Program-made: the position numbers and the translations under genes
Source: Calditrichaceae bacterium
GTDB taxonomy: Bacteria; Calditrichota; Calditrichia; Calditrichales; JBFXGD01
Direction: 5' to 3'
Assembly (NCBI GenBank): GCA_050173015.1
Contig: JBFXLE010000009.1
Span: 103,861 to 167,860 of the forward strand
Length of the DNA stretch: 64,000 nt
Shown: positions 2,183 through 19,800 of the stretch, one piece after another
Numbering within the stretch: the first letter of the stretch is position 1
Layout of the letters: every line of letters begins with the position of its first letter
Notes under the pieces: model-generated
What the model was told of the DNA's origin: nothing
Databases searched by the model: none
Seen by the model: the letters and a program-made list of their open reading frames with translations, nothing else

Positions 2183-2198
2183 TTAATTGTAAAAAAAA

Positions 2199-2265: not shown

Positions 2266-2394
2266 ATGGGCAAGGCAATGAAAGAAAACGCAATGGGAGT
2301 AATATTGTCAGGAAATAGAAAGTTGGAGACTAAAAATAGCTAATATAGATGAATGTTTTGAGAAAATAAAAATAGATTCTAAAGAGAAAATATT

Positions 2395-3803: not shown

Positions 3804-3861
3804 TTACAAGAATAATAGGAAATACAATAGGAAATTTTAATTAAGGAAATTAAGAAGCCCA

Positions 3862-3996
3862 GCCCATAACAATGCATATACTTTATGGCGGGTTCCGTTA
3901 TGAAAATGAGTATTTTAGTTTCAAATATAAATCAGTGTGGACAGAAAGATTTGTCTTCCAAAGTCCGCCACAAAGCATATGCTTCCCGTTATGCAC
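3862..3996 (+). repeat. attC-like site 1
   Basis: GCCCATAAC (reverse complement of GTTATGGGC at 2263); arms GCATATACTTTATGGCGG / CCGCCACAAAGCATATGC; GTT at 3988. Confidence 0.85.
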
Positions 3997-4019
3997 AAGC
4001 TAAAAAAAGAATATAGTTA

Positions 4020-4877: not shown

Positions 4878-5216
4878 ATGGATACTACACAATTTAAAAA
4901 CGGCTATTTCATTGAGAGAGTTTATCAACCAATCTCAGAAACTGAATTCAAGTGTCGACTAATAGTTAAATCAAAGGCGAATAATCAAGAAATTACAGGA
5001 ATAGAGACTAAAATAAATACCGTTGAGATTGGTCAGGGATTAGCAGACTCACAATTTAGCGTTAATCCAATAAGTTGGGAGAGATATTTGAACCAGACAA
5101 TTACAATGTTATTCAACATGTTGATGCTTCGTCTGAATATTACCGACTTGCATAATGTTGACGGAGAAGATAAAATTTCTGAATTCTTTGACGAAAATCC
5201 GTTTCACCAAAATTAA
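4878..5216 (+). CDS. Hypothetical protein (cassette 2)
   Basis: 112-aa ORF abutting the previous stop and ending just before attC-like site 2. Confidence 0.65.
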   Translation: MDTTQFKNGYFIERVYQPISETEFKCRLIVKSKANNQEITGIETKINTVEIGQGLADSQFSVNPISWERYLNQTITMLFNMLMLRLNITDLHNVDGEDKISEFFDENPFHQN

Positions 5217-5224
5217 AAAAGCCA

Positions 5225-5359
5225 GTGCCTAACATCGGCTATAGCAAATGCGGGCTAAAGTGCTATAATGAAAGTAATTACACATAATAAACCAACTGCT
5301 AGTCGGACAAGTAAGTACCTTGAAACCCCGCACTTTCCATAGCCATGACCGTTAGCTGC
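5225..5359 (+). repeat. attC-like site 2
   Basis: GTGCCTAAC (8/9 complementary to GTTATGCAC at 3988); arms GGCTATAGCAAATGCGGG / CCCGCACTTTCCATAGCC; GTT at 5351. Confidence 0.85.
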
Positions 5360-5397
5360 AAGGTTAAGAGCGATACTGCAAAATTGAAAATTAAGAA

Positions 5398-6282
5398 ATG
5401 ATTTTAGACTATTTAAATAAAACATTTAATAACAGAGAAATCGTATTGATTTCCTATTTGACAATTTTCATTATATGGACACTTACACAGAAAAATATTA
5501 GACAGTCCATAGTGTCTGTGATTAAAGCATTTATGGCATGGAAGATACTTGTTTCAATATTTGTGTTGTTACTATATATTGCATTGATTGCTTTTGGATT
5601 ATTTAAAATTGGACTTTGGGATAAATCCATGATTAAAGATACTGTTTATTGGACTTTTGGGGTCGGATTCATTATTATGATGAATTTTGACAAAGCATTG
5701 AAGGAAGAACACTATTTTAAGAACCTTGTCAAAGAAAATTTTAAAGTCCTTATAATCATTGAATTTATAGTTGGAATTTATGTTTTTGGTATCATCACTG
5801 AATTTATTTTAATGCCATTTGTGATTCTATTTTCAATGTTATTAGGATACACTGAAGTTTATAAAGAGCATGGACAAGTTCGCAAATTTTTAAATGGAAT
5901 CTTTGGCATCATAGGTACGATTTATTTAATTTATTCCGGTTATCATATTTACTCTGATTTTACTGGATTTGCAACTCTGGGGAATCTTAAAACATTTTTA
6001 TTCCCTTTAATAATGTTTGTTCTATTTTTACCATTTGCATATTCCTTTGCACTATTGGCTCATTACGAGAGCTTATTCGTTCGATTAGGTTTTTTCCTTA
6101 AAGACAAAAAATTGAGAAGATTCGCTAAGTGGAGAATATTATTGTCAGTAAATTTTAGCATTTTAAGATTAAAACGAATAACACCTGGAATGTTATTTAG
6201 TGACTGTTCTACTAGAGAAGATATAAAAAATGAGATAAAAAATAAAATAAACCCAGCAGCTAACACACAATATAGCCAATAA
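5398..6282 (+). CDS. Polytopic membrane protein of unknown function (cassette 3)
   Basis: About 7 hydrophobic segments; stop codon lies inside attC-like site 3. Confidence 0.75.
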   Translation: MILDYLNKTFNNREIVLISYLTIFIIWTLTQKNIRQSIVSVIKAFMAWKILVSIFVLLLYIALIAFGLFKIGLWDKSMIKDTVYWTFGVGFIIMMNFDKALKEEHYFKNLVKENFKVLIIIEFIVGIYVFGIITEFILMPFVILFSMLLGYTEVYKEHGQVRKFLNGIFGIIGTIYLIYSGYHIYSDFTGFATLGNLKTFLFPLIMFVLFLPFAYSFALLAHYESLFVRLGFFLKDKKLRRFAKWRILLSVNFSILRLKRITPGMLFSDCSTREDIKNEIKNKINPAANTQYSQ

Positions 6283-6394
6283 GGGTTTCAGTGGTATGCA
6301 AAGGGTTGTAGTGTAGCCCGCTCCAACTTTTCGTGTAACTTGATAGGAAATCACCCGCAATCCCTTACTGGCCATATTGTCAAGCGTTAGCTCC
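6256..6394 (+). repeat. attC-like site 3
   Basis: GCAGCTAAC is the reverse complement of GTTAGCTGC at 5351; arms CAATATAGCCAATAAGGG / CCCTTACTGGCCATATTG; GTT at 6386. Confidence 0.85.
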
Positions 6395-6451
6395 AAGGCT
6401 AAAAAATAGAAACAAAAAGAATAAAATATTTGCCAAAAGGATGAAAATAGA

Positions 6452-6630
6452 ACGCCGCCTATGCGGCGTTATTGTTTTGCGACGCGGTTGCTTGCGCAGG
6501 GTACGGATTTAAGATATATTCAGGAGTAGTTATGTCATATTAGTCCCGGGACGACTGAACTGCACACGTCTCAAATAAGTCAATTGATTGAATAAGGAAT
6601 TCTGTTGATGATATTTTTGAAAGGGATTAG
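6452..6630 (+). pseudogene. Tyrosine recombinase C-terminal remnant (copy 2)
   Basis: TPPMRRYCFATRLLAQGTDLRYIQE*LCHISPGTTEL..HVSNKSID*IRNSVDDIFERD*. Confidence 0.85.
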
Positions 6631-6646
6631 TTAATCGTAAAAAAAA

Positions 6647-6713
6647 TATATAAACAATTGTTCATATACCGCTGATTTGGGTGGATAAGAACAATAACAT
6701 ATACACGCACGTT
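6647..6713 (+). other. attI-like site 2
   Basis: Homologous to 2199-2265; GTT at 6711 opens cassette 4. Confidence 0.7.
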
Positions 6714-6735
6714 AGGTTGCATTAAAAAAGAAACC

Positions 6736-7320
6736 ATGAAACTATATCACAGATACAACATAAAGAGAAAACAAGAACATTTATTTTTGGAGTTTATCTT
6801 GAATAATATTCCAGGAATAAATTATTTAAAAGAGAATTATCGTCTTACAGAAAATGAATATGATTCATCAATTGAGATAAAACCCATAATTGATTCATTA
6901 AAAAATGACACTTGGTTACCAAAAAAGCGTAAACAAAATTGCATTGACATTTTACAGGACATTAAACTTAATCATGACAAGGTCGTAGTATTTGAATCGG
7001 TTAATAAAATATCATTTGATTTCACTATTAAAATAGATAGTGACTTGTTTTTCTTTGAATTACACGAAGACCAACACAAGAAGTTAAAAGTAAATAGACA
7101 GTCAAAAATATTTGATATCCAAGGAAATGAAATTTTTGTTCCTCGTTATTTACAAAGATTATTAAAGGATATTTGGCGCTGGGAGAATCTTGACAACTAC
7201 AAGATAATTTGGGCTGACTGGTTTATTTCATCATCAAATAAACTTTCTAACTTGTTGGAAAAAGGAAAAATCGAATACGGAATAGATAATACATTTCAAT
7301 TTAAAAACTTAGGAATATGA
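6736..7320 (+). CDS. Hypothetical protein, possible PD-(D/E)XK / DUF559-like nuclease (cassette 4)
   Basis: SFDF...FFELHEDQH resembles the D..E.xx.xH motif of very-short-patch-type nucleases. Confidence 0.5.
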   Translation: MKLYHRYNIKRKQEHLFLEFILNNIPGINYLKENYRLTENEYDSSIEIKPIIDSLKNDTWLPKKRKQNCIDILQDIKLNHDKVVVFESVNKISFDFTIKIDSDLFFFELHEDQHKKLKVNRQSKIFDIQGNEIFVPRYLQRLLKDIWRWENLDNYKIIWADWFISSSNKLSNLLEKGKIEYGIDNTFQFKNLGI

Positions 7321-7984
7321 ATATTGAAGAATTGGAACAAAAGATTGCGAAACTTAGAAACGAAATAAAAAAGGATACTCTAGAACTTGAGAATGTTCCC
7401 GAAAGATTTATTTCAGTAATCAAAGGAGAACTGAAAACAAAAGAAGGTAGATTAATTGATTTGGAGTTAAAACTGGATGATTTAATTGAAAATGGAATTA
7501 CTGATAGGCTGCAAAAGCCAATTGATGAATTACAAGAGAAAATTAAATCGTTTATTCTTGATTATCAATTTCAATATCCACAGGACAAAGAAATGTTTAT
7601 CTATCAAATTGCATTTGAAGAAAATGATGATGAACTCTTGATAAGCTTAAAACCAAAGGAAAAAACCACAAATCGATTGAACAAATACAACAAGGATTTA
7701 CTAAAAGTTACAATAGAGAACAAAGTAATACAAGAACCAAAAGCTACTGACCTTTTATTAAGACTTTAAAGCACTTTTCAATTAAAAAAGTTAAATCACT
7801 TGACCTTGTATTCTTAGGAGTTCCCTTAATCGCTGAATATAGCCATGACAAATATCAATAGAAACAAATATCAAACAACCTTTTCGTTTTGACTCAGATT
7901 TCCAAAGATAAAAAGAAAGAAATTCTTGAATATATTGCAGAAAAATTCAATCAGAGTATAAAAATCGAATTTGTGAAGAAATAA
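7317..7984 (+). pseudogene. Disrupted gene (coiled-coil N-terminus, broken C-terminal domain) (cassette 4)
   Basis: ORF stops at 7769, but a shifted frame continues KHFSIKKVKSLDLVFLGVPLIAEYSHDKYQ*KQISNNLFVLTQISKDKKKEILEYIAEKFNQSIKIEFVKK* up to the attC-like site. Confidence 0.6.
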
Positions 7985-7985
7985 C

Positions 7986-8122
7986 GCAACCTAGCACGCA
8001 ATAAAAAACATAGGGCAGAAAGTGCAAAAATTGAACGACATAACATTTAATAAACGACTTGGTAACTTGACAGGGAAGTGCTTCGAAATGCCAAACGTTT
8101 CATATACGTAACCGATAGCGTT
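7986..8122 (+). repeat. attC-like site 4 (both cores mutated)
   Basis: GCAACCTAGC vs expected GCAACCTAAC; GATAGCGTT at 8114 vs expected GTTAGCGTT. Confidence 0.75.
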
Positions 8123-8200
8123 CATTGTAAGGAGACAAAACAACCGTCAGAATAATTATGGTATTTTTGCTGCATGAAGAAAAAAGAAAATATGGAAATA

Positions 8201-8290
8201 GCCACCGCACAAATGGCATATTTGGTTTTTGCCGACGCACAGCCAAACGCTGAAAAAACCAAAAGAGCCATTTCTTGCCATCTCACGACT
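8201..8290 (+). repeat. ACA/AGA internal-loop hairpin element E1
   Basis: AAATGGC-ATA-TTTGGTTTTT...AAAAACCAAA-AGA-GCCATTT. Confidence 0.7.
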
Positions 8291-8303
8291 GAAAGATAAT
8301 GAT

Positions 8304-11150
8304 ATGACAACATATAAAAATCAAAATCCTGAACAAATAGCCAGAGACAAAATTGACAAAATGTTAATTGAAGCTGGTTGGATTGTTCAATCTAAAAATG
8401 AAGTTGACTTGGGTGCAGGCAGAGGTGTTGCGTTGAGAGAATACCAAACGGAAACAAAATTTGCGGATTATGTGCTGTTTGTTGACAAAAACCCTGTTGG
8501 AATTATTGAGGCAAAAAAAGAAGACGAAGGACATAAACTAACCGTAGCGGAAGACCAAGCCTCTGAATATGCCAAAGCAAAACTAAAATATTTGGATAAC
8601 GACCCATTGCCTTTTGTTTTTGAGAGTACCGGAACAATAACCCGTTTTAGAGATACACGAGACCCAAAACCAAGAGGGCGACATATTTTTTGGTTTTACC
8701 GTCCCGAAACATTGGCGGAATGGCTACAAAAAGATAAAAGTTTAAGAGGTAGATTATTAGATATTCCGCAATTAAATGAGACTGGGCTTCGCCCTGCTCA
8801 AATTAAGGCGATTAATAACCTTGAACAATCTTTTAAAAAGAACAAGCCAAAAGCTTTAATACAAATGGCTACCGGAGCAGGTAAAACTTTTACTGCCTGT
8901 ACTTTTGTGTATCGCTTATTGGAACACGCCAAAGCCAAACGGATTTTATTTTTGGTTGACACCAAAAACTTAGGAGAACAAGCAGAACAGGAGTTTATGG
9001 CTTTTCAGCCCAACGACAGCAATCGCAAATTCACAGAATTGTATAATGTACAGCGTCTTACTTCAAGCTACATAGCAAGCGATAGTCAGGTTTGTATCTC
9101 TACCATTCAACGGATGTATGCCATTTTAAAAGGTGAAGAACTAGACGAAGGAGCCGAAGATACAAACCCGAACGAATCGACCTGGATGGAACAACAGCGA
9201 AATAAAAAACAGGCAATGCCTGTGGAATATTCTGCCAAAGTACCCATTGAACAATTCGATTTTATTGTAATTGATGAATGCCACCGCTCTATTTACAATC
9301 TTTGGAAACAAGTGTTGGATTATTTCGATGCTTTCCTTATCGGCTTAACTGCCACACCCGATAAGCGAACTTTTGGCTTTTTTGAGGAAAATGTAGTGAG
9401 CGAATATACCTATGAAGAATCTGTGTTGGATGGTGTAAATGTTCCTTACGATGTGTACAATATTGAAACTGAAATTTCGCAAAAAGGCAGTGTGATAAAA
9501 GCAGGTTGGTTTGTGGACAGACGAGATAAGCTCACCCGAAAAACGCGTTGGCAACAAGAAGATGAAGACACCGAATATTTGAAAAACGATTTGGATAAAA
9601 AGGTCGTTAATCCAAGCCAGATACGGAATATTATTCGCCAATACAAAAAAGCATTGGAAACCGAAATTTTCCCGAACAGAAAAGACGAAAATGGAGAATA
9701 CGAAGTTCCTAAAACACTGGTTTTTGCAAAAACTGACAGCCACGCGGATGATATAATCAAAATCATTCGTAAAGAATTTGACGAAGGCGATGATTTCTGC
9801 AAAAAACTGACTTATAAAATAAAAGAAGACCCAAAATCGGTGTTAAACCGTTTTCGGAATTCATATCATCCCCGCATTGCGGTTACGGTAGATATGATTG
9901 CAACGGGAACCGATGTAAAACCTTTGGAAGTGTTGTTGTTTATGCGTGATGTTAAAAGCACCAACTACTTTGAACAAATGAAGGGTAGAGGAACACGCAC
10001 CATTAACAAAGATGCTTTTCAGGCAAACAACACCAATGTAAAAGGGGCTTGCAAAACCCATTTTATTATTGTGGATGCAGTTGGCGTAACAAAGTCGAAG
10101 AAAACCGACAGCCGGCCTTTGGAACGCAAACCAACTGTAGCCTTAAAAGATTTATTGGGAGCGGTAACAATGGGAGTTACCGAAGAAGATTTGTTTCTTT
10201 CGCTTGCAAATCGTTTGATACGATTAGAAAAAGAAATTACCGACAAGGAAAAAGATAAATTACTGGAACATTCCAAAGGCAAAAATCTGAAACAAATCAG
10301 CAAAGAATTATTATCGGCTTTTGATAAAGATGAAATTGAAAACAGAGCACAGGAAAAAATTGAAAAATTCTGTAAAGACGCCCTACAGGGCGTCTCTTCT
10401 GCTGCCGATTTATCTCCGGCACAAATAGAATCTTTCCGACAGGACGCACAGAAAGAATTGATTAATACCGCCGCTTCTACTTTTAACGGAAAGCTGAACG
10501 ATTATATTGAAAAAGTGCGTATGGAACACGAGCAAATTATCGACAGCCACAATATCGACACCGTAACAAAATCGGAATGGGACACCGCTTCGGTGGATAA
10601 AGCCAAAGAAACTGTAAAAGATTTTAACGAATACCTCGAAGCCAATCAGGACGAGATAAAAGCATTGACCATTTTTTACAAACAACCCTACAACCGCCGA
10701 AACATTACCTTTAAAATGATTAAAGATGTGTTTGATAAACTGAAATTGGATAAACCCACCCTTGCCCCCGATTATGTTTGGGCGGCATACAGCCAATTGG
10801 AAGAGGTAAAAAGCAAACAACCGATTGACGAACTCACCGCGTTAATTTCGTTAATTCGCAGGGCTTGCGGAATTGACAGCGAGTTGAAAGCTTTTGATTC
10901 CACCATTGACGAAAATTTCAAAAACTGGATTTTCAAACAAAACGCAGGCAAGCACAACCGCTTTACAACCGAACAAATGGACTGGCTGCGAGAACTGAAA
11001 AATCACGTAGTAAATTCGTATCACATAGAAATTGAAGACCTCGATTATACACCCTTTGATGAAAAAGGAGGACGTGGCAAAATGTACCAACTCTTTGGTG
11101 CCGAAATGAACGATATTATTAATGAACTTAACGAGGTATTAGCAGCATAA
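8304..11150 (+). CDS. hsdR: Type I restriction endonuclease subunit R (EcoEI/EcoAI-like)
   Basis: ADYVL..IIEAK nuclease motif, MATGAGKT Walker A, DECH, TAT, QMKGRGTR; EcoEI-type C-terminus. ATG 8304 preferred over TTG 8229, which lies inside repeat E1. Confidence 0.92.
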   Translation: MTTYKNQNPEQIARDKIDKMLIEAGWIVQSKNEVDLGAGRGVALREYQTETKFADYVLFVDKNPVGIIEAKKEDEGHKLTVAEDQASEYAKAKLKYLDNDPLPFVFESTGTITRFRDTRDPKPRGRHIFWFYRPETLAEWLQKDKSLRGRLLDIPQLNETGLRPAQIKAINNLEQSFKKNKPKALIQMATGAGKTFTACTFVYRLLEHAKAKRILFLVDTKNLGEQAEQEFMAFQPNDSNRKFTELYNVQRLTSSYIASDSQVCISTIQRMYAILKGEELDEGAEDTNPNESTWMEQQRNKKQAMPVEYSAKVPIEQFDFIVIDECHRSIYNLWKQVLDYFDAFLIGLTATPDKRTFGFFEENVVSEYTYEESVLDGVNVPYDVYNIETEISQKGSVIKAGWFVDRRDKLTRKTRWQQEDEDTEYLKNDLDKKVVNPSQIRNIIRQYKKALETEIFPNRKDENGEYEVPKTLVFAKTDSHADDIIKIIRKEFDEGDDFCKKLTYKIKEDPKSVLNRFRNSYHPRIAVTVDMIATGTDVKPLEVLLFMRDVKSTNYFEQMKGRGTRTINKDAFQANNTNVKGACKTHFIIVDAVGVTKSKKTDSRPLERKPTVALKDLLGAVTMGVTEEDLFLSLANRLIRLEKEITDKEKDKLLEHSKGKNLKQISKELLSAFDKDEIENRAQEKIEKFCKDALQGVSSAADLSPAQIESFRQDAQKELINTAASTFNGKLNDYIEKVRMEHEQIIDSHNIDTVTKSEWDTASVDKAKETVKDFNEYLEANQDEIKALTIFYKQPYNRRNITFKMIKDVFDKLKLDKPTLAPDYVWAAYSQLEEVKSKQPIDELTALISLIRRACGIDSELKAFDSTIDENFKNWIFKQNAGKHNRFTTEQMDWLRELKNHVVNSYHIEIEDLDYTPFDEKGGRGKMYQLFGAEMNDIINELNEVLAA
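10372..10399 (+). repeat. REP-like palindrome inside hsdR
   Basis: GTAAAGACGCCCTACAGGGCGTCTCTTC, a variant of the GTAGAGACGCCC-n-GGGCGTCTCTAC palindrome. Confidence 0.65.
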
Positions 11151-12688
11151 TGAGAGAAGATTGGATTGACGTTGAATTAAAAGATGTTTGCCTAAGTTCA
11201 AAGGGAAAGAAACCAAGTGTTTTAGAAAAAAATAATTCTGAAACTGCTAATGTGCCATATATAAATATCAAAGCTTTTGAGAAAGGTATAATAGAAGAAT
11301 ACACTGATGGTGAAAAATGCAATTTATGTGAAGATGGTGACTTGTTAATGGTTTGGGATGGTGCAAGGGCTGGGCTTACAGGTAAAGCTAAAAAAGGTGC
11401 TGTTGGTTCAACACTAATGAGAATTGAAGAAGTAAAAGGTATTGAAAAGGAATATTTATATTATTTTCTTTTATCACTTTTTACAAAGATTAATACAAAT
11501 CCAAGAGGTGTTGGTATTCCACATGTTGAACCACGAATACTATGGTTGTCAAAAGTATTAATTGTTAGCAGTCCCATCCAACGAGCAATAGTATCCAAAA
11601 TCGAAGCCCTGTTTTCCGATTTGGACAACGGCATCGCCAATTTAAAAAAAGCACAGGAGCAATTAAAAATATACCGTCAAGCGGTTTTGAAAAAGGCCTT
11701 TGAGGGCGAACTCACAAAAGAATGGCGTGAAAAGATTGTACAGACGCCCAATTTGGGCGTATCAACGCCCCTGCCAACAGCCGAAGAACTGCTAAAACAA
11801 ATAAAAGAAGAACGCCAAAACCACTACAACCAACAAATTGAAGACTGGAAAAAAGCGGTTAAGGAATGGGAGAAAAATGGGAAAGTTGGGAAGAAGCCAA
11901 GTAAGCCTAAGCAGCAAAAAGAATTGCCACCTTTAAATGAGGAAGAATTGAATGAGCTGCCGAAATTGCCAAAGTCAATGGTATGGACACAACTTGGAAA
12001 TGTGGTTTGGTCTGTAAAAGATGGACCTCATTTTAGCCCTAAATATTCAAAAACTGGTATACCCTTTATCTCAGGTGGGAATATTAGACCAGAAAAAATT
12101 GACTTTGAAAAAGTAAAATATATTTCAGAAGAGCTTCATAAGGAACTAAGTCGAAGATGTAAACCACAATTAGATGACATTCTATACACCAAAGGCGGAA
12201 CAACTGGAATTGCAAAAGTTAATACATATAAATTTGATTTTAATGTTTGGGTGCATGTAGCAGTATTAAGACCAATCCAAATGATTTTACCATTATATTT
12301 ACAACATGTTTTAAATTCTTCTCATTGTTATAAACAATCGCAAGAATATACACATGGGGTTGGTAATCAAGATTTAGGTTTAACAAGAATGATTTTAATC
12401 ACACTGCCTATTTGTTGTAAAGAAGAACAAACCCAAATCGTCCAAGAAATAGAAAGCCGTTTATCGGTTTGCGACAAAGTAGAGCAAAGCATAACCGAAA
12501 GCCTTGAAAAAGCCGAAGCCCTTCGCCAAAGCATTCTTAAAAAAGCATTTGAGGGCAAATTATTAAGCGAAGCTGAAATAGAACAATGCAAAAAGGCAGC
12601 CGATTACGAACCTGCGGCAAAATTGTTGGAACGAATAAAACAGGAAAAAATAAATAAGGATAATAATAAAAAAACAAAATCAAAATAA
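11150..12688 (+). CDS. hsdS: Type I R-M specificity subunit
   Basis: Two TRDs with conserved PIQRAIVSKIEALF / EEQTQIVQEIES and SILKKAFEGKL regions. Confidence 0.92.
   Translation: MREDWIDVELKDVCLSSKGKKPSVLEKNNSETANVPYINIKAFEKGIIEEYTDGEKCNLCEDGDLLMVWDGARAGLTGKAKKGAVGSTLMRIEEVKGIEKEYLYYFLLSLFTKINTNPRGVGIPHVEPRILWLSKVLIVSSPIQRAIVSKIEALFSDLDNGIANLKKAQEQLKIYRQAVLKKAFEGELTKEWREKIVQTPNLGVSTPLPTAEELLKQIKEERQNHYNQQIEDWKKAVKEWEKNGKVGKKPSKPKQQKELPPLNEEELNELPKLPKSMVWTQLGNVVWSVKDGPHFSPKYSKTGIPFISGGNIRPEKIDFEKVKYISEELHKELSRRCKPQLDDILYTKGGTTGIAKVNTYKFDFNVWVHVAVLRPIQMILPLYLQHVLNSSHCYKQSQEYTHGVGNQDLGLTRMILITLPICCKEEQTQIVQEIESRLSVCDKVEQSITESLEKAEALRQSILKKAFEGKLLSEAEIEQCKKAADYEPAAKLLERIKQEKINKDNNKKTKSK
11738..11766 (+). 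repeat. REP-like palindrome inside hsdS
   Basis: GTACAGACGCCCAATTTGGGCGTATCAAC. Confidence 0.7.
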
Positions 12689-12739
12689 TTGTGAAACGCG
12701 TTGGACGTATTTGTCGCATTTGACGCGTTGGACGCATTG

Positions 12740-12768
12740 GTAGAGACGCCCAATTTGGGCGTCTCTAC
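12740..12768 (+). repeat. GTAG-family REP palindrome upstream of the transposase
   Basis: GTAGAGACGCCCAATTTGGGCGTCTCTAC, flanked by 9-bp and short tandem repeats. Confidence 0.85.
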
Positions 12769-12840
12769 GACGACGATCCCTACGATCCCGATCCCGACGA
12801 CGACAATATCGTTCACGTTCACAATAACGAAAACAAAAAT

Positions 12841-13452
12841 ATGCCCGATAAATTTCAAAACAAATACCGCATACCATCGGCACGATTGCAAACATGGGAT
12901 TATGGAAGCAATGGAACCTATTTTATAACCATTTGCACCCAAAACCGTGAACATTATTTTGGTGAAATTACAGACGGTAATATGATATTATCCGAAATAG
13001 GAATTTTGGCGAACAAATATTGGAATGAAATACCAGAACATTTTCCATTTGTCAATTTGGATGAATTTGTGGTAATGCCCAACCACGTGCATGGGATTAT
13101 TATCATTGATAAACCCGATGATGGACGGGATGATGGGCGGGACGTTGGACGGGACGTTGGACGGGACGTAGAGACGCCCAAATTGGGCGTCTCTACCAAT
13201 ACCAATACCAATACCAATACCAATCATCAAACCGCCACGGCATCCGAAAAATGGAAACCGGCATCATTGGGGGTAATTATCAACCAATATAAACGAATGG
13301 CAACCATTAAATCGCGTAAAATCCACGCTGATTTTGGTTGGCAATCCCGTTTTTACGACCAGATCATACGAAACAACGAATCGTATGAAAAAATCAGAAA
13401 TTATATTGTCAACAACCCATTGAAATGGGAAGAAGATAAATTTTACAATTAA
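12841..13452 (+). CDS. REP-associated tyrosine (HUH/Y1) transposase, RAYT-like
   Basis: YFITICT, VVMPNHVHGII (HUH), WQSRFYDQIIR, YIVNNP (catalytic Tyr). Confidence 0.9.
   Translation: MPDKFQNKYRIPSARLQTWDYGSNGTYFITICTQNREHYFGEITDGNMILSEIGILANKYWNEIPEHFPFVNLDEFVVMPNHVHGIIIIDKPDDGRDDGRDVGRDVGRDVETPKLGVSTNTNTNTNTNHQTATASEKWKPASLGVIINQYKRMATIKSRKIHADFGWQSRFYDQIIRNNESYEKIRNYIVNNPLKWEEDKFYN
13117..13224 (+). repeat. 12-bp tandem repeat x4 + REP palindrome (13168-13196) + ACCAAT x5, in frame within the transposase
   Basis: Encodes DDGRDDGRDVGRDVGRD-VETPKLGVST-NTNTNTNTN. Confidence 0.85.
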
Positions 13453-13467
13453 ATTGAAAGAAATAAT

Positions 13468-14988
13468 ATGTCAGAAAGTGCAATAGTATCAAAAGTGTGG
13501 AATTTCGCCAATGTTCTTAGAGACGATGGAGTGGGTTATGGTGATTATTTAGAGCAAATCACCTATTTGCTTTTCCTAAAAATGGCAGACGAACTTAACA
13601 AACCGCCCTACAATAAAGGTTTAAAATTTCCGAAACTCAAAAATGCTGAGGGTGTTGAATTGCCCGATGCCGAAACCTGCGACTGGCAAACGCTGTCGCA
13701 AAAACGTGGTTTGGAATTGGAAAATTTTTACAACCAAATGCTACGAAGTTTGGGAAGCGAAAAAGGAACGTTGGGGCAAATTTTCGTAAAAAGTCAAAAC
13801 AAAATACAAGACCCATCAAAACTCTTAAAAATCATTGATATGATTGATAAAGAGCAATGGAGCTTAATGGGAACCGATGTAAAAGGGAAAATTTACGAAG
13901 GTCTTTTAGAGAAAAATGCCGAAGACACCAAAAGCGGTGCAGGGCAATATTTTACGCCTCGTTCGCTCATCAAAACAATGGTGGCTTGTGTTCGTCCCAA
14001 ACCCATGAAAACCATTATAGACCCTGCTTGTGGCACTGGCGGTTTCTTTTTGGCAGCTTACGATTATATCAAAAGTCAGAATTTAGACCAGGAAGAAAAG
14101 GAGTTTTTGAAAAACAAAACTTTCTACGGAAACGAAATTGTAGCCAATACACGCAGAATGTGTTTGATGAACATGTTTTTGCACAACATTGGCGAAATTG
14201 ATGGCGAAACACTCATTTCTTCAGCTGATGCTTTGGTTTCGGACAATGGCATACGCTACGATTATGTGCTGGCAAATCCGCCTTTTGGTAAAAAAAGCAG
14301 TATGACCATTACCAACGAAGAGGGCAAACTGGAAAAGCAGGATTATACTATCAATCGTCAGGATTTTGTGGCTACCACAGCCAACAAGCAACTAAACTTT
14401 TTGCAACACATAAAAACGCTTTTAAAACTCACAGGCGAAGCAGCCGTTGTACTTCCCGATAATGTTTTGTTTGAGGGCGGAGCAGGCGAAACGGTTCGGA
14501 AAGAATTGATGAAAACAACCGAATTGCATACAATTTTAAGACTTCCAACAGGTATATTTTACGCACAAGGTGTAAAAGCAAATGTTTTGTTTTTCGACAA
14601 CAAACCAGCTTCAAAAGAGGCTTGGACAAAAGATGTTTGGATTTATGATTATCGAAGTAACATAAGCCACACATTAAAGAAAAACCCAATGCGATTTGAG
14701 CATCTACAGGAATTCGTAAAACTCTACAATCCCGAAAACCGAAATAAAAGAACAGAAACGTGGAGCGAAACAAATCCCGAAGGCAGATGGAGAAAGTATA
14801 GTTATGCTGAAATCATTGAACGAGATAAAACCAACTTGGATATATTTTGGATTAAAGACAAAAGCTTAACCGACTTAGATAATTTACCCGACCCCGATAT
14901 TTTGGCAAACGAAATCATTGAAAACATTGAAGCCGGATTAAATAGTTTTAAAGAAATAATGGAAACAATAAACGGAGATGAAAGCTAA
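13468..14988 (+). CDS. hsdM: Type I R-M N6-adenine methyltransferase subunit M
   Basis: GQYFTPR, DPACGTGGF and NPPF motifs. Confidence 0.95.
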   Translation: MSESAIVSKVWNFANVLRDDGVGYGDYLEQITYLLFLKMADELNKPPYNKGLKFPKLKNAEGVELPDAETCDWQTLSQKRGLELENFYNQMLRSLGSEKGTLGQIFVKSQNKIQDPSKLLKIIDMIDKEQWSLMGTDVKGKIYEGLLEKNAEDTKSGAGQYFTPRSLIKTMVACVRPKPMKTIIDPACGTGGFFLAAYDYIKSQNLDQEEKEFLKNKTFYGNEIVANTRRMCLMNMFLHNIGEIDGETLISSADALVSDNGIRYDYVLANPPFGKKSSMTITNEEGKLEKQDYTINRQDFVATTANKQLNFLQHIKTLLKLTGEAAVVLPDNVLFEGGAGETVRKELMKTTELHTILRLPTGIFYAQGVKANVLFFDNKPASKEAWTKDVWIYDYRSNISHTLKKNPMRFEHLQEFVKLYNPENRNKRTETWSETNPEGRWRKYSYAEIIERDKTNLDIFWIKDKSLTDLDNLPDPDILANEIIENIEAGLNSFKEIMETINGDES

Positions 14989-14989
14989 G

Positions 14990-15080
14990 CCCAGCCCAAA
15001 AACCATACACATTTGCAATTCGCGCGAGCCAACGCTTGACCAAAAATTGCAAAAGAGTATGTCTTGCCAACGCACGGACA
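14990..15080 (+). repeat. ACA/AGA hairpin element E2
   Basis: CATAC-ACA-TTTGCAATT...AATTGCAAA-AGA-GTATG. Confidence 0.7.
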
Positions 15081-15130
15081 GAGAATGCAGCAAAAATGAA
15101 AGATAAATTGGCTGGAAAAATAAACAACGA

Positions 15131-15263
15131 AACGCTAACACGCGGTATAAAACATTGGGGTTTAAGTATTTATTCGAGCGTTCTACCCCGCATCAAGTTC
15201 GGTGTAACTCGACAGGATAGTAGCCCGCAATCCCTTACGAGTCATACACTCAAAGTTAGTTCC
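15131..15263 (+). repeat. attC-like site 5
   Basis: AACGCTAAC is complementary to G(A)TAGCGTT at 8114; right arm resembles sites 3 and 7; GTT at 15255. Confidence 0.8.
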
Positions 15264-15320
15264 AAGCCTAAAAAATAGAAACAACAAGAATAAAATATTT
15301 GCCAAAAGGATGAAAATAGA

Positions 15321-15501
15321 ACGCCGCCTATGCGGCGTTATTGTTTTGCAACGCGGTTGCTTGCACAGGATAGGGATTTAAGGTATATTCAGGAGTAGTT
15401 AGGTCATAATCGTTCCGGGACTACTGAAATTTGCGCACATCTCAAAAAAGTCTATTGATAAAAACAGTAATCCTACGGATGATATCTTTGAAAGGGATTA
15501 G
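15321..15501 (+). pseudogene. Tyrosine recombinase C-terminal remnant (copy 3)
   Basis: TPPMRRYCFATRLLAQDRDLRYIQE*LGHNRSGTTEICAH...DDIFERD*. Confidence 0.85.
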
Positions 15502-15517
15502 ATAATTGTAAAAGAAA

Positions 15518-15584
15518 TATATAAACAATTGTTCATACACCGCCAATTTGGGCGGATAAGAACAATAGAATATATACGAACGTT
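15518..15584 (+). other. attI-like site 3
   Basis: TATATAAACAATTGTTCATACACCGCCAATTTGGGCGGATAAGAACAATAGAATATATACGAACGTT; GTT at 15582. Confidence 0.7.
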
Positions 15585-15624
15585 GTGTGGCATTAGAAGT
15601 AACTTACATAAAAAAGGGTGACTT

Positions 15625-16212
15625 ATGGAAATAAAATTTGATGTGGAAATACAAGATGAAGAGAAAGAACTTCTGAAAACGATATTACATTGTGATAATG
15701 ATGAAGACTTAAATAATCTCTTGAATAAATTAGGCCGTTCTTCATTTGAAGATATTAGAAGAATGACAATTGGACAAAAAGTATTTACTCGTGGAAGAGA
15801 TATTTTAGAATATCGGTTATTTAATTTAATAAAGTTTTTCTTCGATGGGAAAATACCAGACGAACAAAAAATATGTGATTTATTCCAAATAACGGCAACT
15901 GAAAGTCGAGCATTTATTCGCTCAATAATGTCAAAGTATCAATATGACTTAAAAGAAACAATATCTTCAACATTAAAAGAACAAGTAGAAAATATTCAAA
16001 AAGAAGAAAATGAAGAAGTTTATAAACTTTCCATTCAAAACCAGTATTTCAAAGATGAATTAAATAGAATATTAGGAACAATAGACACAAGTTTACCGAT
16101 TATTGAAAAAGAGCGGGGAACTATTTCTACTTATGTAATTCAAACATCATCTTACCAGAAGTTATGTGAACATTTTGGCATTGAACTAGAAGAAGAAAAC
16201 AATGAAAACTGA
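15625..16212 (+). CDS. Hypothetical soluble protein (cassette 6)
   Basis: 195-aa ORF; possible HTH-like segment IPDEQKICDLFQITATESRAFI. Confidence 0.7.
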   Translation: MEIKFDVEIQDEEKELLKTILHCDNDEDLNNLLNKLGRSSFEDIRRMTIGQKVFTRGRDILEYRLFNLIKFFFDGKIPDEQKICDLFQITATESRAFIRSIMSKYQYDLKETISSTLKEQVENIQKEENEEVYKLSIQNQYFKDELNRILGTIDTSLPIIEKERGTISTYVIQTSSYQKLCEHFGIELEEENNEN

Positions 16213-16621
16213 TTTACCTAATTTATTAACTGCATCAAGTATTCTATTGGGAATTATTACTGCATTATATGGTTTATTTTTTCCTGCGATTAATTCAATT
16301 TTAGTAATAAAATCTAAGCCCCATAAGGTTGATAATAAGAAGGCCTACAGTGAAAGCAAGGATATTATAAAAGCAAAATATATTCCATTATTAATTGGTT
16401 CGTTAGTAATTACATTGATAAACATACCAGAGCTGTTTTCTCAATTAAGAAATAGTTTTGTTGCAATAAAAACTAGTGGAATAGAGAACACAACATATGA
16501 TACGTTAACAGCATCATTTATTGTCGTTTGCCTTTTTATGATTTTCATTACGATAATGATGATAGCAACTGGTTTTAAGTTAAGAAAGAAAATAAAAGAA
16601 CTTAATCCAAATGAACAATAA
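16202..16621 (+). CDS. Three-TM membrane protein (cassette 6)
   Basis: Three hydrophobic helices; overlaps the upstream gene; stop lies immediately before the attC-like core. Confidence 0.7.
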   Translation: MKTDLPNLLTASSILLGIITALYGLFFPAINSILVIKSKPHKVDNKKAYSESKDIIKAKYIPLLIGSLVITLINIPELFSQLRNSFVAIKTSGIENTTYDTLTASFIVVCLFMIFITIMMIATGFKLRKKIKELNPNEQ

Positions 16622-16622
16622 C

Positions 16623-16759
16623 GCCACACAACAAAAAATATAGTGCATTTGGCAGATGGTGCTAAAAATGAAAATGATTGCAATAAATGAACATAGTAGT
16701 AAATTGAAAGCTTGGAGCGTTGAAATGCCAAACGCACCATATTCAAACCGTTGTATGCC
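16623..16759 (+). repeat. attC-like site 6
   Basis: GCCACACAAC is the reverse complement of GTTGTGTGGC at 15582; arms AATATAGTGCATTTGGCA / TGCCAAACGCACCATATT; GTT at 16750. Confidence 0.85.
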
Positions 16760-16777
16760 ATGCTGGAAACGAGCTAA

Positions 16778-16865
16778 CCGCACAAATAGCACATTTGGTT
16801 ATTGCTGACACAAAAGCAAAGGCTGAAAAACTAAAAGAGCTATTTTATTGTCAAACGCACATAGA
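16778..16865 (+). repeat. ACA/AGA hairpin element E3
   Basis: AAATAGC-ACA-TTTGGTT...AACTAAA-AGA-GCTATTT. Confidence 0.7.
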
Positions 16866-16877
16866 CTAAAACTAAAA

Positions 16878-19800
16878 ATGAATGAAGAAATAGTATCAGC
16901 AAGTGGAGAAAGAGCAGCAATGGGAGGCTATTTGCCTCAATTTGATGAGTTCGCTTGGTTTGTCTATTTGAATCTAATAAATAAAAAGCTTGAATGGATA
17001 CGAATAGCAGACTCCAAGGCTGAAAAACTAGATGATATACAGTATTCTACTCATTCAGAAATTCATGCATACCAAGTAAAATGGACTATCGCTGATGCAA
17101 ATATATCATTTGCAAATTTTACGGATTTGTTTCCTCTTATCACCTCTAGTTGGAAGAGTTTAAAAACAGCTAATCCTAGCAAAAAAATAATTCCTCATTT
17201 AATCACTAACAAACCTATTTCCTCCCACGACAGCTTAAAGGTAGGCGATACAAAAATCGGTTCATTTCAAGACTTCGTCTCAGAAGTTTGGGTAAAGCTA
17301 AAATCAAATCAATCAATTGATGATAAGTGGAAACAAGTTCTTGAGGAACTCAAAAAGAGTTCAAAACTCAATGATTCTGAATTTGGAGAATTTATCATCT
17401 CTTTTGATTTTCAACCAGACTATAAACAAAAACAGTTTAGTATAGGAAATATTAAATACTCTAAAGAAGACGAAGACCTTCAACAGATCAGTCGATATAT
17501 AGTACAAAAAGTTGCTAGCCCGAAAAGAGTCGTTGAATTTACTCGCCAAGAAATTATTAAAGAATTAGGTTGGTCTGATAGATTTAAAACAATTTTTAAT
17601 CACGAGTTAATAGTCGATAGACAAAGATACCAGCCGATTCAATCGACAATTGACCTGTTAAATTCAAAGTTAGAGGAGCATAAAAATGGATACCTGTTTT
17701 TGCTAGGTGGCCCAGGTTCTGGAAAATCTACCTTATTGAATCAATGGTCAAAAGGCCTTAAAACACGAATAATACGATACTACGCCTTTGATTTCGTTAA
17801 TCCATCTTCACACTTAAACTTTTATGAAAGAGGAAATGCTACCCATCTTTTTTTCGATTTAGTTTTTCAATTAAAGGAAGCTGGAATATATAAAAGAGAC
17901 ATTCTTCCATATAAAGACTTACTTTTTCTAAAAGATGTATTCAATGAGCAATTAAGTGCAATTGGAGAGGACTTTGTGACAAATGGTCAATCGACCATAA
18001 TATTGATTGATGGTCTAGATCATGTTCCTAGGGAATACAAATCAACAACTAATAGTTTCCTACGAGAACTTCCTTTACCATCTTCTCTCCCAAACGGGGT
18101 CTTCATCATTTTAGGTAGTCAATCTTATGAACTTGAAGACATTCAACAGGAAATTAAAACTGAATTTCAGAAAGGAAATAGAACCATTCAAATTGATCCA
18201 CTTAAAAAGGAGGAAGTATACAAGTACATTGATAATCTTGATACTTCAATTCAACTTAATGGTTCTCAAAAGCTGCAAATATTTGAGAAATCAGAAGGAC
18301 ACCCGTTATACCTGTCATACTTAATTGAAAAAATCAATAACGCAGATTCTATTAACGATACAATCGAATCTTTTGAAGTTATTGATGGTAGTATTGATAA
18401 TTATTACAAAAAAATATGGGAGCCTATCCAGAAAGAAGATAGCCAAATTCAATTCTTAGGTTTAATTGCGAGAATTAATGGTTTGATCAAACTTCAGTTC
18501 ATTCAGGAATGGGACTTCCAACCGAGTGTTTTAAAGTCCTTTCGTGAAAAGGCCAGATTTCTGTTTAATGAAACCGAAAAAACTTTGTCTTTCTTTCATA
18601 ATTCGTTCAAGCAATTCCTTCTTCATCATACCTCTTTAAATTACTTAACAGATGAGTTTGATCCGACAATTAACGTCAATTATCATAGTCAACTTACTGA
18701 TTATTATGTAAAATCAGAGATTGAAAAATCCTGGAAACAGAATCATCACCTATTTCAGGCTAAACAATATGATAAGTTTATTTCAGAAGTTACCCCAAAT
18801 AGTATTACTGAACAGTTACTTAACTTCAGACCAGCAGAAGAAATTAAGCAGGATGCAAAATTGGGAGTTGAAATAGCAAGACAGAATAAGGACATTAATA
18901 CTCTGGTAAGATATCTGTTTTCATTAGCAGAAATTGAAAGAAGATTATTCAATATTGATCCCACATCCTTTATAGAAGAACTTTTGTACCTAAATAAATA
19001 CGACTTAGCAAGGGATTATCTAAGAACTGGCAACACCCTCCATTGTAGCGAATCGTACGCATTTAAAGCATGTCGATTGTTTATTGAATCTGGGCACAAA
19101 TCAGAAGGAGCAACTTTATACAATTTGGCTTATCCAGAAATCATTACAGATTCCGGGATACATATTGATGATTCTCACAGATATGAAGAAATAAGAGATT
19201 CTTTAGAAGAATGGATTTATACTTCTCCCTATTTTGAAGCAACCGAGAATATTTTCTCAATAATTGAGAAAATTCAATTCTCAGGTAGCATACGGAAAAA
19301 CAGGTTTGAAGAAGAAGAATCTGATTTACTTTTAAGGTTACTCTCTAATCTTGGTTATAGTTTAGTGGATCAAAACAAGTGGGATGATTTTAATAAAGTC
19401 ATAGAAAAAATAGATTCGAGGTCTTCAAGAGGAAGGAATTCTCTTTTCCAACTTATAAAGTACGCTATCGAGCAATGCCTTGACTTAAAAGATAGTAGTC
19501 GAGTGAATGAATATCTGTCATTTTTAACCACTCATTTCACAAAAGAGAAGACAAAATCCATTGGCAAAATATTCATTGCAGATTTAGTCTATAAAGTCAC
19601 TAGAGACCTAAATGAAACATATAGTTGGATTAAGGAAGTTGAGCAACCATCTAATGTGGGTAAAGACCAGCTAGGATATGATGATTCGTTAGACGCCTTT
19701 CTTCCATTAATCAAACTTAACAAGTTACTTAACCTATGTGGAAAAGGAGTTTCGATTACGTCTGCAATTCCATCTGTTGCGAAAGGTACTGATGAAGAAG

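Follow-up and report, generated by a model that had tools for sequence, protein, structure and literature searches.

A textbook integron has one attI and one integrase per array, and an array with a dead integrase is expected to freeze. The window (the whole stretch of DNA analysed here, 64,000 nucleotides) holds an array in which a dead integrase end and an attI-like site occur three times, each time followed by other genes, which raises the question of how a platform came to be multiplied within its own array and how its cassettes came to differ.

Anatomy of the array

Defence-gene cassettes (Thoeris, type I RM, Avs-like NACHT) are lined up here in an integron-like array, on an island for which a genome of the same genus, G001, is the empty site: sequence matching window 1-1840 (86.6%) is followed there by 131 nt and then by sequence matching window 25606-26563 (85.6%). 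The features are given below, where own-start is the match of the attC inverse core to the 5' start of its own cassette, fold z refers to the bottom strand of the attC and the slash in G/TT marks the crossover.

1841..25605, no strand: island with the array, 23.8 kb, missing from G001
about 1905..2158, + strand: head remnant c1, dead 3' part of a XerA-like integrase beginning near codon 188, by alignment to the intact G025 integrase and tblastn/HMM matches with internal stops
2003..2022, + strand (copies 6451-6470 and 15320-15339): derived 8-bp GC-rich hairpin with T tract, terminator-like, the top terminator-like matches
2159..2265, + strand: attI-like site 1, crossover ACG/TT, G at 2263
2263..3988, + strand: cassette 1, type II Thoeris (ThsB TIR, ThsA Macro; Pfam, PADLOC); attC1 about 3849-4000; own-start 10/12; fold z -3.6
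3988..5351, + strand: cassette 2, ORFs 4020-4877 and 4878-5216, weak Stk2 match; attC2 about 5218-5355; own-start 9/12; fold z -2.7
5351..6386, + strand: cassette 3, ORF 5398-6282; attC3 6253-6390; own-start 10/12; fold z -3.8
6386..6451, + strand: stub of module c2, truncated 5' leader of a cassette family
6452..6606, + strand: remnant c2, joint between 6451 and 6452, last 65 nt of type A
6607..6713, + strand: attI-like site 2, G at 6711
6711..8114, + strand: cassette 4, ORFs 6736-7320 and 7317-7769, no match in Pfam or PADLOC; inverse core at 7995 AGC, not AAC; own-start 10/12
8114..15255, + strand: cassette 5, type I RM (hsdR, hsdS, RAYT-like ORF, hsdM; Pfam) between two IR-B elements; core GAT, not GTT; own-start 8/12
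15255..15320, + strand: stub of module c3
15321..15477, + strand: remnant c3, joint as in c2, last 65 nt of type B
15478..15584, + strand: attI-like site 3, G at 15582
15582..16750, + strand: cassette 6, ORFs 15625-16212 and 16202-16621; attC homologous to one in genome G012; own-start 11/12
16750..23191, + strand: cassette 7, 2033-aa NACHT/Avs1b-like protein (Pfam, PADLOC) between two IR-B elements; own-start 10/12
23191..23341, + strand: terminal stub (23191-23256) continuing into an IR-B element, an uninterrupted cassette leader (compare the G012 leader)

The mid-array module measures 328-330 nt and consists of a 66-nt stub, the 3' remnant of a dead tyrosine recombinase and an attI-like site of ~107 nt. 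A sequence-only reading of the window had placed a module of ~325 bp at two mid-array sites, with the remnant and attI-like site also heading the array; a repeat search and a whole-genome search bear this out, with complete modules at 6386-6713 and 15255-15584 and a third platform copy at about 1905-2265, and the description of the array as three tandem platforms holds. These repeats are real and far above chance expectation. In the repeat search of the window, 6386-6559 matches 15255-15428 at 93%, 1996-2266 matches 6444-6714 at 90%, and a 72-nt stub repeat family recurs at 6381, 15250 and 23186 with 88-90% identity; in the whole-genome search with 6300-6730 as query, copies were returned at E values from 1e-225 to 2e-22. 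Identities among copies are 92.3% (copies 1-2), 82.2% (1-3) and 83.4% (2-3) for the remnants, 88.8-92.5% for attI and 89.7-94.8% for the stubs, and upstream of each stub the homology extends ~180 nt leftward into the preceding attC. The junction of stub and remnant, said to be the same in both modules, is identical over the 46 nt compared and lies within a 64-nt exact run. The genome-wide search for more copies that the same reading had called for yielded two extra loci with remnant and attI, C5:153649-153897 and C43:2469-2688, at which the whole-genome search found neither stub nor joint.

The attI adjoins the integrase gene, and the cassettes are joined to it at G/TT, as in a strict integron; its conservation ends at GTT in an alignment of 21 copies, and its inverted repeat is 80.3% paired as against 32-51% when slid, with compensatory changes in 7 of 16 pairs. 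Cassettes are bounded at G/TT and end in a folded attC, an inverted repeat of the form R''-L''...L'-R', one per cassette. In all seven of these sites, which were identified by hand, the inverse core best matches the start of its own cassette (8-11/12 on the diagonal, compared with 3-9 in the 42 cells that pair a cassette with another attC). At attC1-3 the fold z lies between -2.7 and -3.8, and the last attC reaches -3.4, whereas the attC that ends unit 2 folds weakly (z -0.4 to -2.0). The core is altered in the attC of cassette 4 (AGC for AAC) and in that of cassette 5 (GAT for GTT), the GAT start of cassette 5 being present in the sister strain as well. The array may be frozen in part. The genes behind the three attI-like sites are unrelated, in agreement with the statement that each site is followed by different cassettes. 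A cluster of attC sites lacking an integrase, in which a cassette array outlasts its recombinase, is called a CALIN (reportedly described by Cury et al. in 2016); by the usual measure of at least two attC sites with no intact integron integrase nearby, the present array is also of this kind, with seven attC sites and only integrase remnants in the window.

The dead integrase and its joint to a cassette leader

The integrase belongs to a family of short XerA-like tyrosine recombinases in which attI lies directly behind the stop codon. Genome G025 carries an intact 278-aa member with a matching attI directly behind it, and the remnants are 55-61% identical to the C-terminal 47-70 residues of this relative. 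It scores 238.7 bits on NF040815 ('site-specific tyrosine recombinase/integron integrase', XerA-like; cut-off 220). An IntI identity was considered for the family and rejected, as the G025 relative reaches 214.3 bits on TIGR02249 (cut-off 265) in two stretches that skip the IntI insertion (the window copies are remnants without that part of the gene). Its alignment to VchIntIA (2a3v) is likewise split into two stretches and scores lower than those to archaeal XerA structures. Integrons with a co-oriented ('inverted') integrase, such as that of Treponema denticola, share with this family the common direction of integrase and cassettes and the position of attI behind the 3' end of the integrase; their integrase carries the IntI-specific insertion, which the present family lacks. 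Members of this very large family are 75-90% identical even across phyla, and some lie on Bacteroidota plasmids.

In the compared region the intact relative reads TPHMLRHSFATHLLEQG...QELLGH..SSKTTEIYTHV. When the remnants are read in the integrase frame, all three have TPP for TPH, RR for LRH, ATR for ATH, a TAG in QE*L and PG for SK, and the region of the catalytic Tyr is destroyed by indels, which confirms that the copies share lesions (His to Pro, the same TAG) and have nevertheless diverged. The mid-array joint deletes about 220 of the 278 integrase codons. An intact integrase, for which a genome search had also been proposed, was not found for this family in the host genome (completeness 97.5%), where the best full-length matches are Xer-like genes with 34-36% identity.

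Sequence comparison revealed no significant similarity between the stub and the integrase. The stub is instead the 5' leader of a cassette family: genome G012 has the order attI, one cassette, attC, stub, GCCACCGCAC, hsdM, in which a leader 84% identical to the stub continues into the cassette, and in the sister strain a homologous leader stands directly at an attI. The sequence-only reading had the stub close the array at 23191; its recurrence at 23191-23256 stands, while the closing role does not, the terminal copy being, by comparison with G012 and the sister strain, another leader of the cassette family. The mid-array modules are one chimeric joint between a cassette 5' leader and an already dead integrase end. 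This joint is located at the foot of the hairpin, with microhomology (ATAA-GCC-CC). At the hairpin position, the longest stem in intact relatives is 2-6 bp, and a stem of at least 7 bp occurs in 0 of the 30 in which the motif could be located. As regards a Pc promoter to drive the cassettes, a consensus scan for sigma-70-like sites, a class that does not include the promoter type of this phylum, found none common to the three modules.

Probable multiplication of the platform and exchange of cassettes

We consider it rather probable that the platform multiplied after the death of its integrase, by illegitimate and then by unequal homologous recombination, and that cassettes were swapped later, probably by an integrase in trans. 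The order of events agrees with what had been proposed from the letters alone: c2 and c3 share a unique joint, and all copies, including the longer head, share the point lesions. A platform that died and then multiplied would leave an array with three entry points, as is now seen. The joint would have arisen once, by illegitimate recombination at the microhomology by the hairpin foot, and further copies would have followed by unequal homologous recombination between platform copies.

The remnants themselves are not uniform along their length. Their first 90 nt are 91-97% identical among five copies, but over the last 65 nt the identity of type A to type B falls to 67-73% (Fisher p 3e-5 versus the first 90 nt); the remnants are therefore of two old types in these last 65 nt, and their history includes recombination between copies. 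Remnant c2 looks like a hybrid, which would combine the joint and first 90 nt of the mid-array line with the type-A end of the head copy. The gap of about 30% between A and B over 65 nt could also reflect two separately acquired integrase alleles whose lesion-bearing 5' parts were later homogenised by gene conversion, in which case the first duplication would not have come 'after death'. In addition, c1 and c2 differ by 8-11%, the two strains by only about 3%, and c2 was not seen on the sister-strain contigs, so a simple timeline needs loss or uneven rates.

The sister strain is represented by two metagenome contigs, L064 and L065 (overlap 4623/4624), and is 97.2% identical to the window over the flank, the head remnant and attI1. 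Behind this attI1 lies a different 5.2-kb cassette (PRTase-CE, NADAR, Sacsin/NOV_C). The mid-array module of the sister is 95.2% identical, its joint differing by 1 nt, and is mosaic, with a stub 98.5% like c2 and a remnant 97.5% like c3; downstream come type III RM and Mrr cassettes, followed by the hsd leader and hsdR at 97.5%. The neighbours of the module differ on both sides between the two strains, with limits exactly at G/TT. Strain differences in cassettes could stem from homologous exchange of whole units flanked by conserved modules.

The proposed later divergence of cassette content is upheld by the fit of every cassette to its own attC, by three different first cassettes and by the other cassettes at both attI sites of the sister. 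Because the first cassettes abut attI exactly at G/TT and fit their own attC, site-specific insertion at dead-headed sites must have taken place in some genome. The most economical explanation would be a recombinase acting in trans, the alternative being the import of ready-made units by homologous recombination, and it is consistent with the absence of an intact family member from the nearly complete host genome. A mobile element or another strain would supply an integrase of this family, which would add cassettes at each attI and remove them again, and selection may maintain the attI and the initial 90 nt of each remnant with their terminator-like hairpin; as a candidate role, each module would insulate and re-open the array. 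More tentatively, and with the balance of probability against it, the mid-array modules may be, rather than debris, selected 'relay stations' of an integrase-less integron-like system. In such a system the terminator-like hairpin of the dead gene and a full attI would divide the defence array into units that are entered and expressed separately and insulated from one another, a XerA-like integrase that circulates horizontally would act on them, and dead-platform multiplication would be a regular route of growth.

Rival histories and related systems

Mis-joining of three loci or strains through the repeat is extremely improbable. Short-read contigs of the probable source run do break at each module, where depth rises because other organisms share the repeats, and the joins around modules 3 and E therefore rest on the deposited assembly and on the divergence of the copies. 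However, divergence among the copies amounts to 5-17%, no exact repeat between modules exceeds 64 nt, and depth in the probable source run is even over the three units (32-38 in bins away from the shared repeats); moreover, head, cassette, module and the cassette after it stand together on an independent contig of 28 kb, and a contig from a second study covers 6263-6612 (attC3, stub, joint and remnant 2) without mismatch. Travel of the module from GTT to GTT is mechanistically possible. A module that is itself mobile, bounded by G/TT, excised by attC x attI as an attI-bearing circle and re-inserted at another attC so as to spread entry points, would account for ends that lie exactly at crossover points on both sides and for the exact G/TT limits at which the neighbours change between strains, and attI-derived sites recombined by IntI1 within arrays of mobile integrons are described in parts of PMC12901181. 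We nonetheless judge this distinctly unlikely, since no joint-bearing copy was found outside the window array and the sister strain, in the host genome, the 85 other genomes of the phylum or the genome and metagenome contigs, and since ordinary attI insertion with attC x attC deletion would also change the neighbours. A query over the joint (6300-6520) had no spanning match in those 85 genomes, the best match being to the stub only, and the hairpin pattern had 0 matches in genome contigs and, in metagenome contigs, matched the sister strain alone.

Two further histories concern where the copies and the cassettes came from. Two platforms with different integrase alleles (A and B) might have become neighbours in a cointegrate, for instance if a platform-bearing element had fused with the array (attI x attI or attI x attC), with a deletion from a cassette leader into the second integrase making the joint and gene conversion spreading the lesion-bearing first 90 nt. 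The divergent last 65 nt, with different frameshifting indels between flanking segments that are 87-97% identical, would fit such accretion, as would the two intact co-oriented integrases 10.5 kb apart in a Prolixibacteraceae genome and the absence of the island from the same-genus genome. Yet in an alignment with four less decayed copies A and B share derived states in or near the divergent stretch (GTCT, GATGATAT), gene conversion would have had to reach the sequence to the left and to the right of the 65 nt and yet spare these, and c2 would still require a duplication or hybrid event; we regard accretion as unlikely, though with an appreciable chance. We give a similarly small chance to a lineage without an integrase in trans, which would have received units built in other genomes by homologous recombination through the similar modules, attC sites and IR-B elements at their flanks. 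In favour of this, modules are mosaic when the strains are compared, the present genome has no integrase of the family, and crossovers between platform repeats yield the In104 variants of Salmonella genomic island 1 in the portions of PMC3285670 that treat them. Against import stand the exact G/TT at which first cassettes meet attI, each fitting its own attC, and a dead head that is 97% identical in both strains and followed by a different first cassette.

With multiplication after death as the preferred reading, the new elements of this analysis are the stub as a cassette leader, the joint at the hairpin foot, the sister-strain cassettes, the lack of an intact integrase, the XerA-like relative and the empty site. 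A dead platform has been copied within its own array with a complete attI kept in every copy, and a 97%-identical sister strain has other defence systems behind the same dead heads. The locus is a clean natural experiment on what a platform requires in cis: the attI and the initial 90 nt of the remnant are conserved, and the 65 nt between them are free to drift. If the integrase does act in trans, any passing member of a very large family, which spans phyla and is missed by standard integron finders, could work on such arrays, and cassettes would be the form in which defence systems that are both large and complete (type I and III RM, Thoeris, Avs-like) are exchanged.

Several known systems resemble the array in part. 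In104, the complex class 1 integron of Salmonella genomic island 1, is described in parts of PMC3285670 as having two attI sites, each with its own cassette, the second beside a truncated integrase (a groEL-intI1 fusion), and as varying by crossovers between repeated platform parts. According to the same parts, it differs in its intact IntI1 in cis, its class 1 mobility, its divergent integrase and the non-cassette DNA between its platforms, whereas in the window all copies are dead, co-oriented, three in a row, of a non-IntI family and joined to the preceding attC via a cassette leader. An In104-type complex integron was accordingly rejected, since truncated integrases are present beside attI 2 and 3 but no intact one in the element or the genome. 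Xanthomonas chromosomal integrons with inactivated intI also have an array that outlives its integrase at a fixed chromosomal place, inactivation accompanying more stable arrays with one platform as far as the relevant parts of 10.1101/2025.06.18.660453 report; here, in contrast, there are three copies of the dead platform, and strains that are 97% identical have different first cassettes. The Delta-attI-type cassettes of mobile integrons have a short attI fragment in place of the cassette attC, an attI-derived sequence inside an array that the integrase can use there (PMC12901181, in part). This type was rejected for the modules, as cassettes 3 and 5 retain their own attC before the module and a full attI and 155 nt of integrase remnant follow. 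Finally, anti-phage systems are carried as cassettes in Vibrio-type sedentary integrons, where parts of 10.1101/2024.07.02.601686 call them 'streamlined variants'; the cassettes of the window reach 6.4-7.1 kb and hold complete type I RM and Avs-like systems.

Three dead platforms in an integron-like array

Repeat finding and a whole-genome search located the integrase remnant with its attI-like site, and a 66-nt stub, in three copies each:

about 1905-2265: remnant c1 and attI-like site, at the head of the array
6386: start of a stub
6452-6713: remnant c2 and attI-like site
15255: start of a stub
15321-15584: remnant c3 and attI-like site
23191: start of the terminal stub

The two complete modules (stub, remnant and attI-like site) are 328 and 330 nt long. 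They have an identical stub/remnant joint, and the exact match that contains it extends over 64 nt; no two modules share a longer exact stretch. Identities between copies are 82-92% for the remnant, 89-93% for the attI-like site and 90-95% for the stub. When read in the integrase frame against an intact relative, all three remnants share five lesions (TPP for TPH, RR for LRH, ATR for ATH, TAG in QE*L, and PG for SK), and indels have destroyed the region of the catalytic Tyr, where c1 and c2 have lost 4 nt and c3 has lost 2 nt. Behind each attI-like site a different cassette has been inserted at G|TT. The sequence-only reading, which had given these repeat positions, an identical junction, diverged remnants with common lesions and different cassettes behind each site, is therefore confirmed as an observation; its interpretation, that the platform was amplified after the integrase had died, is supported with refinements.

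The genes behind the attI sites are all on the + strand, and the spacers are long imperfect hairpins that start with ...AAC and end with GTT...; the bottom strands of attC1-3, the sites closing cassettes 1-3, fold with z of -2.7 to -3.8. Because the inverse core of an attC and the 5' start of its cassette derive from one circular cassette, the two are expected to be complementary. The own-start match was the best in 7/7 cassettes, with diagonal values of 10, 9, 10, 10, 8, 11 and 10 of 12, each the highest of its row, and values of 3-9 in the 42 off-diagonal cells, where the attC belongs to another cassette. The array is accordingly integron-like and the three sites are attI sites, each with its own inserted cassette. 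When 21 copies of the attI-like site from 15 genomes are aligned, ~75 nt are conserved, ending at ACGTT; an inverted repeat within the site is 80.3% paired, as opposed to 32-51% when slid, with compensatory changes in 7/16 pairs. No Rfam family reached its gathering score in 1-26000.

The cargo is defensive, comprising a type II Thoeris system, a type I RM system (hsd, cassette 5) and a 2033-aa NACHT protein of the Avs1b type (cassette 7), besides several unknowns. The first cassettes of units 2 and 3 encode proteins of similar size; kinship was considered and rejected, as they are unrelated.

The stub, the joint and the large cassettes

In G012, a genome from a different genus, one cassette and an attC come after a solo attI, and next is the same stub (84% identity), which continues unbroken into GCCACCGCAC... 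and hsdM. The terminal stub at 23191 likewise continues into IR-B, a repeat element of large-cassette leaders and trailers, and in a sister strain (metagenome contigs L064 and L065) the homologous leader opens a cassette directly at an attI. These contexts identify the stub as the leader with which the large cassettes of one family begin at their 5' end. The sequence-only reading had correctly placed a stub at 23191, but the role in closing the array that it assigned to this copy does not hold. We also considered the stub as more integrase sequence, which was rejected on local alignment with three integrase regions (p 0.04-0.75, 500 shuffles), and a conserved small protein in the ~180 nt before the stubs, which was rejected as the 80- and 81-aa ORFs there (15036-15278 and 22946-23191) share no frame-consistent similarity; the latter result leads us to read the stretch preceding each stub as probable attC DNA.

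The mid-array module is a chimera, in which this cassette leader was cut after 66 nt and fused to the dead integrase at the TPP codon. Around the breakpoint, ATAA-GCC-CC is common to both joint partners, and the breakpoint itself is situated at the base of a GC-rich 8-bp hairpin, which has a T tract behind it and gives the strongest terminator-like matches of the region. The hairpin is derived, with 11 substitutions in 17 nt relative to the intact gene and no change in length (counted by eye); at the same place in intact relatives, which a motif search located in 30/80, the longest stem is 2-6 bp. The hairpin pattern was found in two metagenome contigs and in no species representative among the genome contigs searched. 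The simplest origin of the joint would be a single illegitimate event at the hairpin, assisted by microhomology. With each module, a terminator-like hairpin and a full attI come to stand between cassette blocks; the former would stop read-through from the preceding block and the latter would offer a new insertion point. A sigma-70 scan gave 54 sites compared with 56.6 in shuffles, which is no excess, and none was common to the modules.

IR-B copies form one repeat family in direct orientation:

8197-8273: IR-B copy
15003-15075: IR-B copy
16764-16845: IR-B copy
22972-23050: IR-B copy
23254-23341: IR-B copy

The two large cassettes, hsd and NACHT, have copies in the 5' leader as well as the 3' trailer, and a copy also lies behind the terminal stub; every copy has an internal inverted repeat, TTTGCAAT...ATTGCAAA. 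The element's start, GCCACCGCAC, is the one found ahead of hsdM in G012. In both strains the type I RM cassette starts with GATAGCGTTCATTG instead of GTT... (at 8114, and at about 8058 of L065), and the homologous leader at the attI of the sister strain begins GTTAGCGTTCATTG; the core of this 7-kb cassette may have mutated and the cassette may be fixed. Perfect 29-nt palindromes (GTAGAGACGCCCAATTTGGGCGTCTCTAC) occur in and around hsdS (11738-13224), adjoining a 203-aa ORF with a weak IS200/Y1 transposase match (REP/RAYT-like), and in the sister strain hsdR is joined to the hsdS-palindrome region at about 9271.

Sister strain, assembly and history of the copies

The two sister-strain contigs overlap at 4623/4624 positions and so form one array.

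Features of the sister-strain array, in order
1: peptidase flank, head remnant and attI1; 97.2% identity to the window
2: one 5.2-kb cassette with PRTase-CE, NADAR and Sacsin/NOV_C proteins; inverse core and own start match
3: module of stub, joint, remnant and attI; 95.2% identity, joint differing by 1 nt
4: type III RM cassette
5: Mrr cassette
6: hsd leader and hsdR; 97.5% identity

An independent assembly therefore has a platform module inside the array, on the same contig as the head. The sister strain and the window have nearly identical dead heads, yet different cassettes follow at each of the two attI sites. In a genome of the same genus, the M49 peptidase gene is followed by 131 nt and then an MFS gene, which shows that 1841-25605 is a 23.8-kb island; besides the whole array it holds genes for a VWA-domain protein (23712-25109) and a small membrane protein (25109-25531). 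The VWA genes were rejected as a normal cassette, there being no attC or inverted repeat at the right end of the island (25531-25606).

A mis-join of separate loci through the modules has to be weighed, as contigs of the probable source run (X1) break at every module and none of those listed bridges one. The depth of this run is even (32-38 in bins off shared repeats), and a contig from a second study matches 6263-6612 with no mismatch, running across the end of attC3, the stub, the joint and remnant 2. Because exact identity between modules does not exceed 64 nt, a mis-join appears unlikely. Run X2, from a different study, contains units 1 and 2 as well as the terminal stub; it leaves 17340-22675 uncovered, and its terminal-stub contig begins at 23191. 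These short contigs hint at a strain that may lack the NACHT cassette or have a different last unit.

Over its first 90 nt the remnant shows 91-97% identity across five copies, three from the window and two from the sister strain. The 65 nt that follow separate into two types, A in c1, c2 and the sister head, B in c3 and the sister module; identities are 92-100% within and 67-73% between types (Fisher p 3e-5 for the segment contrast). The attI copies, 86-97% identical, show no comparable division. The sister module is moreover a mosaic, its stub c2-like (98.5%) and its remnant c3-like (97.5%). This discord between segments, together with the mosaic, shows that the platform copies have recombined with one another. 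If the head copy and a mid-array module had crossed over unequally within the conserved 90 nt, a whole unit would have been duplicated, and this one event would yield c1 (A), c2 (joint and A), c3 (joint and B) and the end stub. For the contrast between the 65 nt and their flanks, one possibility is an old A/B split with selection acting on the flanks; the other is that two distinct alleles met and conversion homogenised their flanks. Under either reading the joint-bearing copies were already dead when they multiplied, because the joint removes about 220 of the 278 codons.

The integrase family and comparable systems

A genome of the same order (G025) encodes an intact 278-aa integrase ending ...DDFFE, with the same attI-like site directly behind it. 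This protein passes NCBIfam NF040815 ('site-specific tyrosine recombinase/integron integrase', XerA-like; 238.7 bits, cut-off 220) and fails the integron-integrase model TIGR02249 (214.3 bits, cut-off 265), two matching stretches of which skip the IntI insertion; among PDB chains, archaeal XerA outscores VchIntIA. When the source genome was searched for more copies and an intact integrase, as the sequence-only reading had proposed, two further remnant-plus-attI copies were found, truncated near HLLEQ and without the TAG (contigs C5 and C43), but no intact family member was present in this 97.5%-complete genome. Its best full-length matches are two Xer-like genes (34-36% identical), and nothing in it passes the IntI model.

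The family is very large (7952/7999 scored candidates at E <= 1e-40, the best 120 being 74-100% identical) and extends over Bacteroidota, Ignavibacteriales, Calditrichaceae, Spirochaetaceae, Desulfurellales, Neomarinimicrobiota, Chlorobiota and others; it also occurs on Bacteroidota plasmids, and only five phage records matched, at 32-41% identity. Its size, range and carriage on plasmids make a transient source of integrase acting in trans plausible. Most attI copies in relatives of the phylum are orphaned: the 20 loci tested comprised one with an intact gene, one with an N-terminal part at a contig end, five with remnants of 20-85 residues and 13 without a hit. Within 6 kb of an intact integrase, none of 80 loci had another integrase or remnant on the same strand, and five had an opposite-strand gene of another family.

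In104 of Salmonella genomic island 1 carries a pair of attI1 sites, of which the second adjoins a truncated intI1 fusion, and its variants come from crossovers between repeated platform parts (PMC3285670). In104 is the nearest described case; it retains an intact IntI1 (PMC3285670). Dead chromosomal integrases are associated with stable arrays in Xanthomonas (10.1101/2025.06.18.660453), Delta-attI cassettes are attI fragments within arrays (PMC12901181), and Smyshlyaev et al. describe the IntI insertion as 'not fully conserved' in an integron-like subgroup (PMC8138268). The literature searched contained no description of this XerA-like cassette system or of tandem dead platforms.

A Prolixibacteraceae chromosome record (L091/L131, ~14.7-26.3 kb of the merged stretch) has two intact co-oriented family integrases 10.5 kb apart, each with ...ACG|TT and same-strand genes behind it; this pair would be a live counterpart of the tandem platforms. 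A Chryseobacterium plasmid record (L147, 8773-18759) has co-oriented unrelated small genes behind a family integrase that is annotated 'site-specific tyrosine recombinase/integron integrase'; an IS110 transposase and a group II intron interrupt this row of genes. In L027 (G008:C86:1-1547) the contig stops at residue 209 of an otherwise intact integrase, near the start point of the remnants in the window, and the 3' end and attI may be repeated in that genome too. Within the source genome, the C5 locus (G000:C5:153649-154775) is a further orphan platform, where an integrase end of 45 residues, free of stop codons, precedes an attI and a first cassette; the start of this cassette, GTTAGCAGCAAC, fits the inverse core CATGCTGCTAAC located 891 nt downstream.
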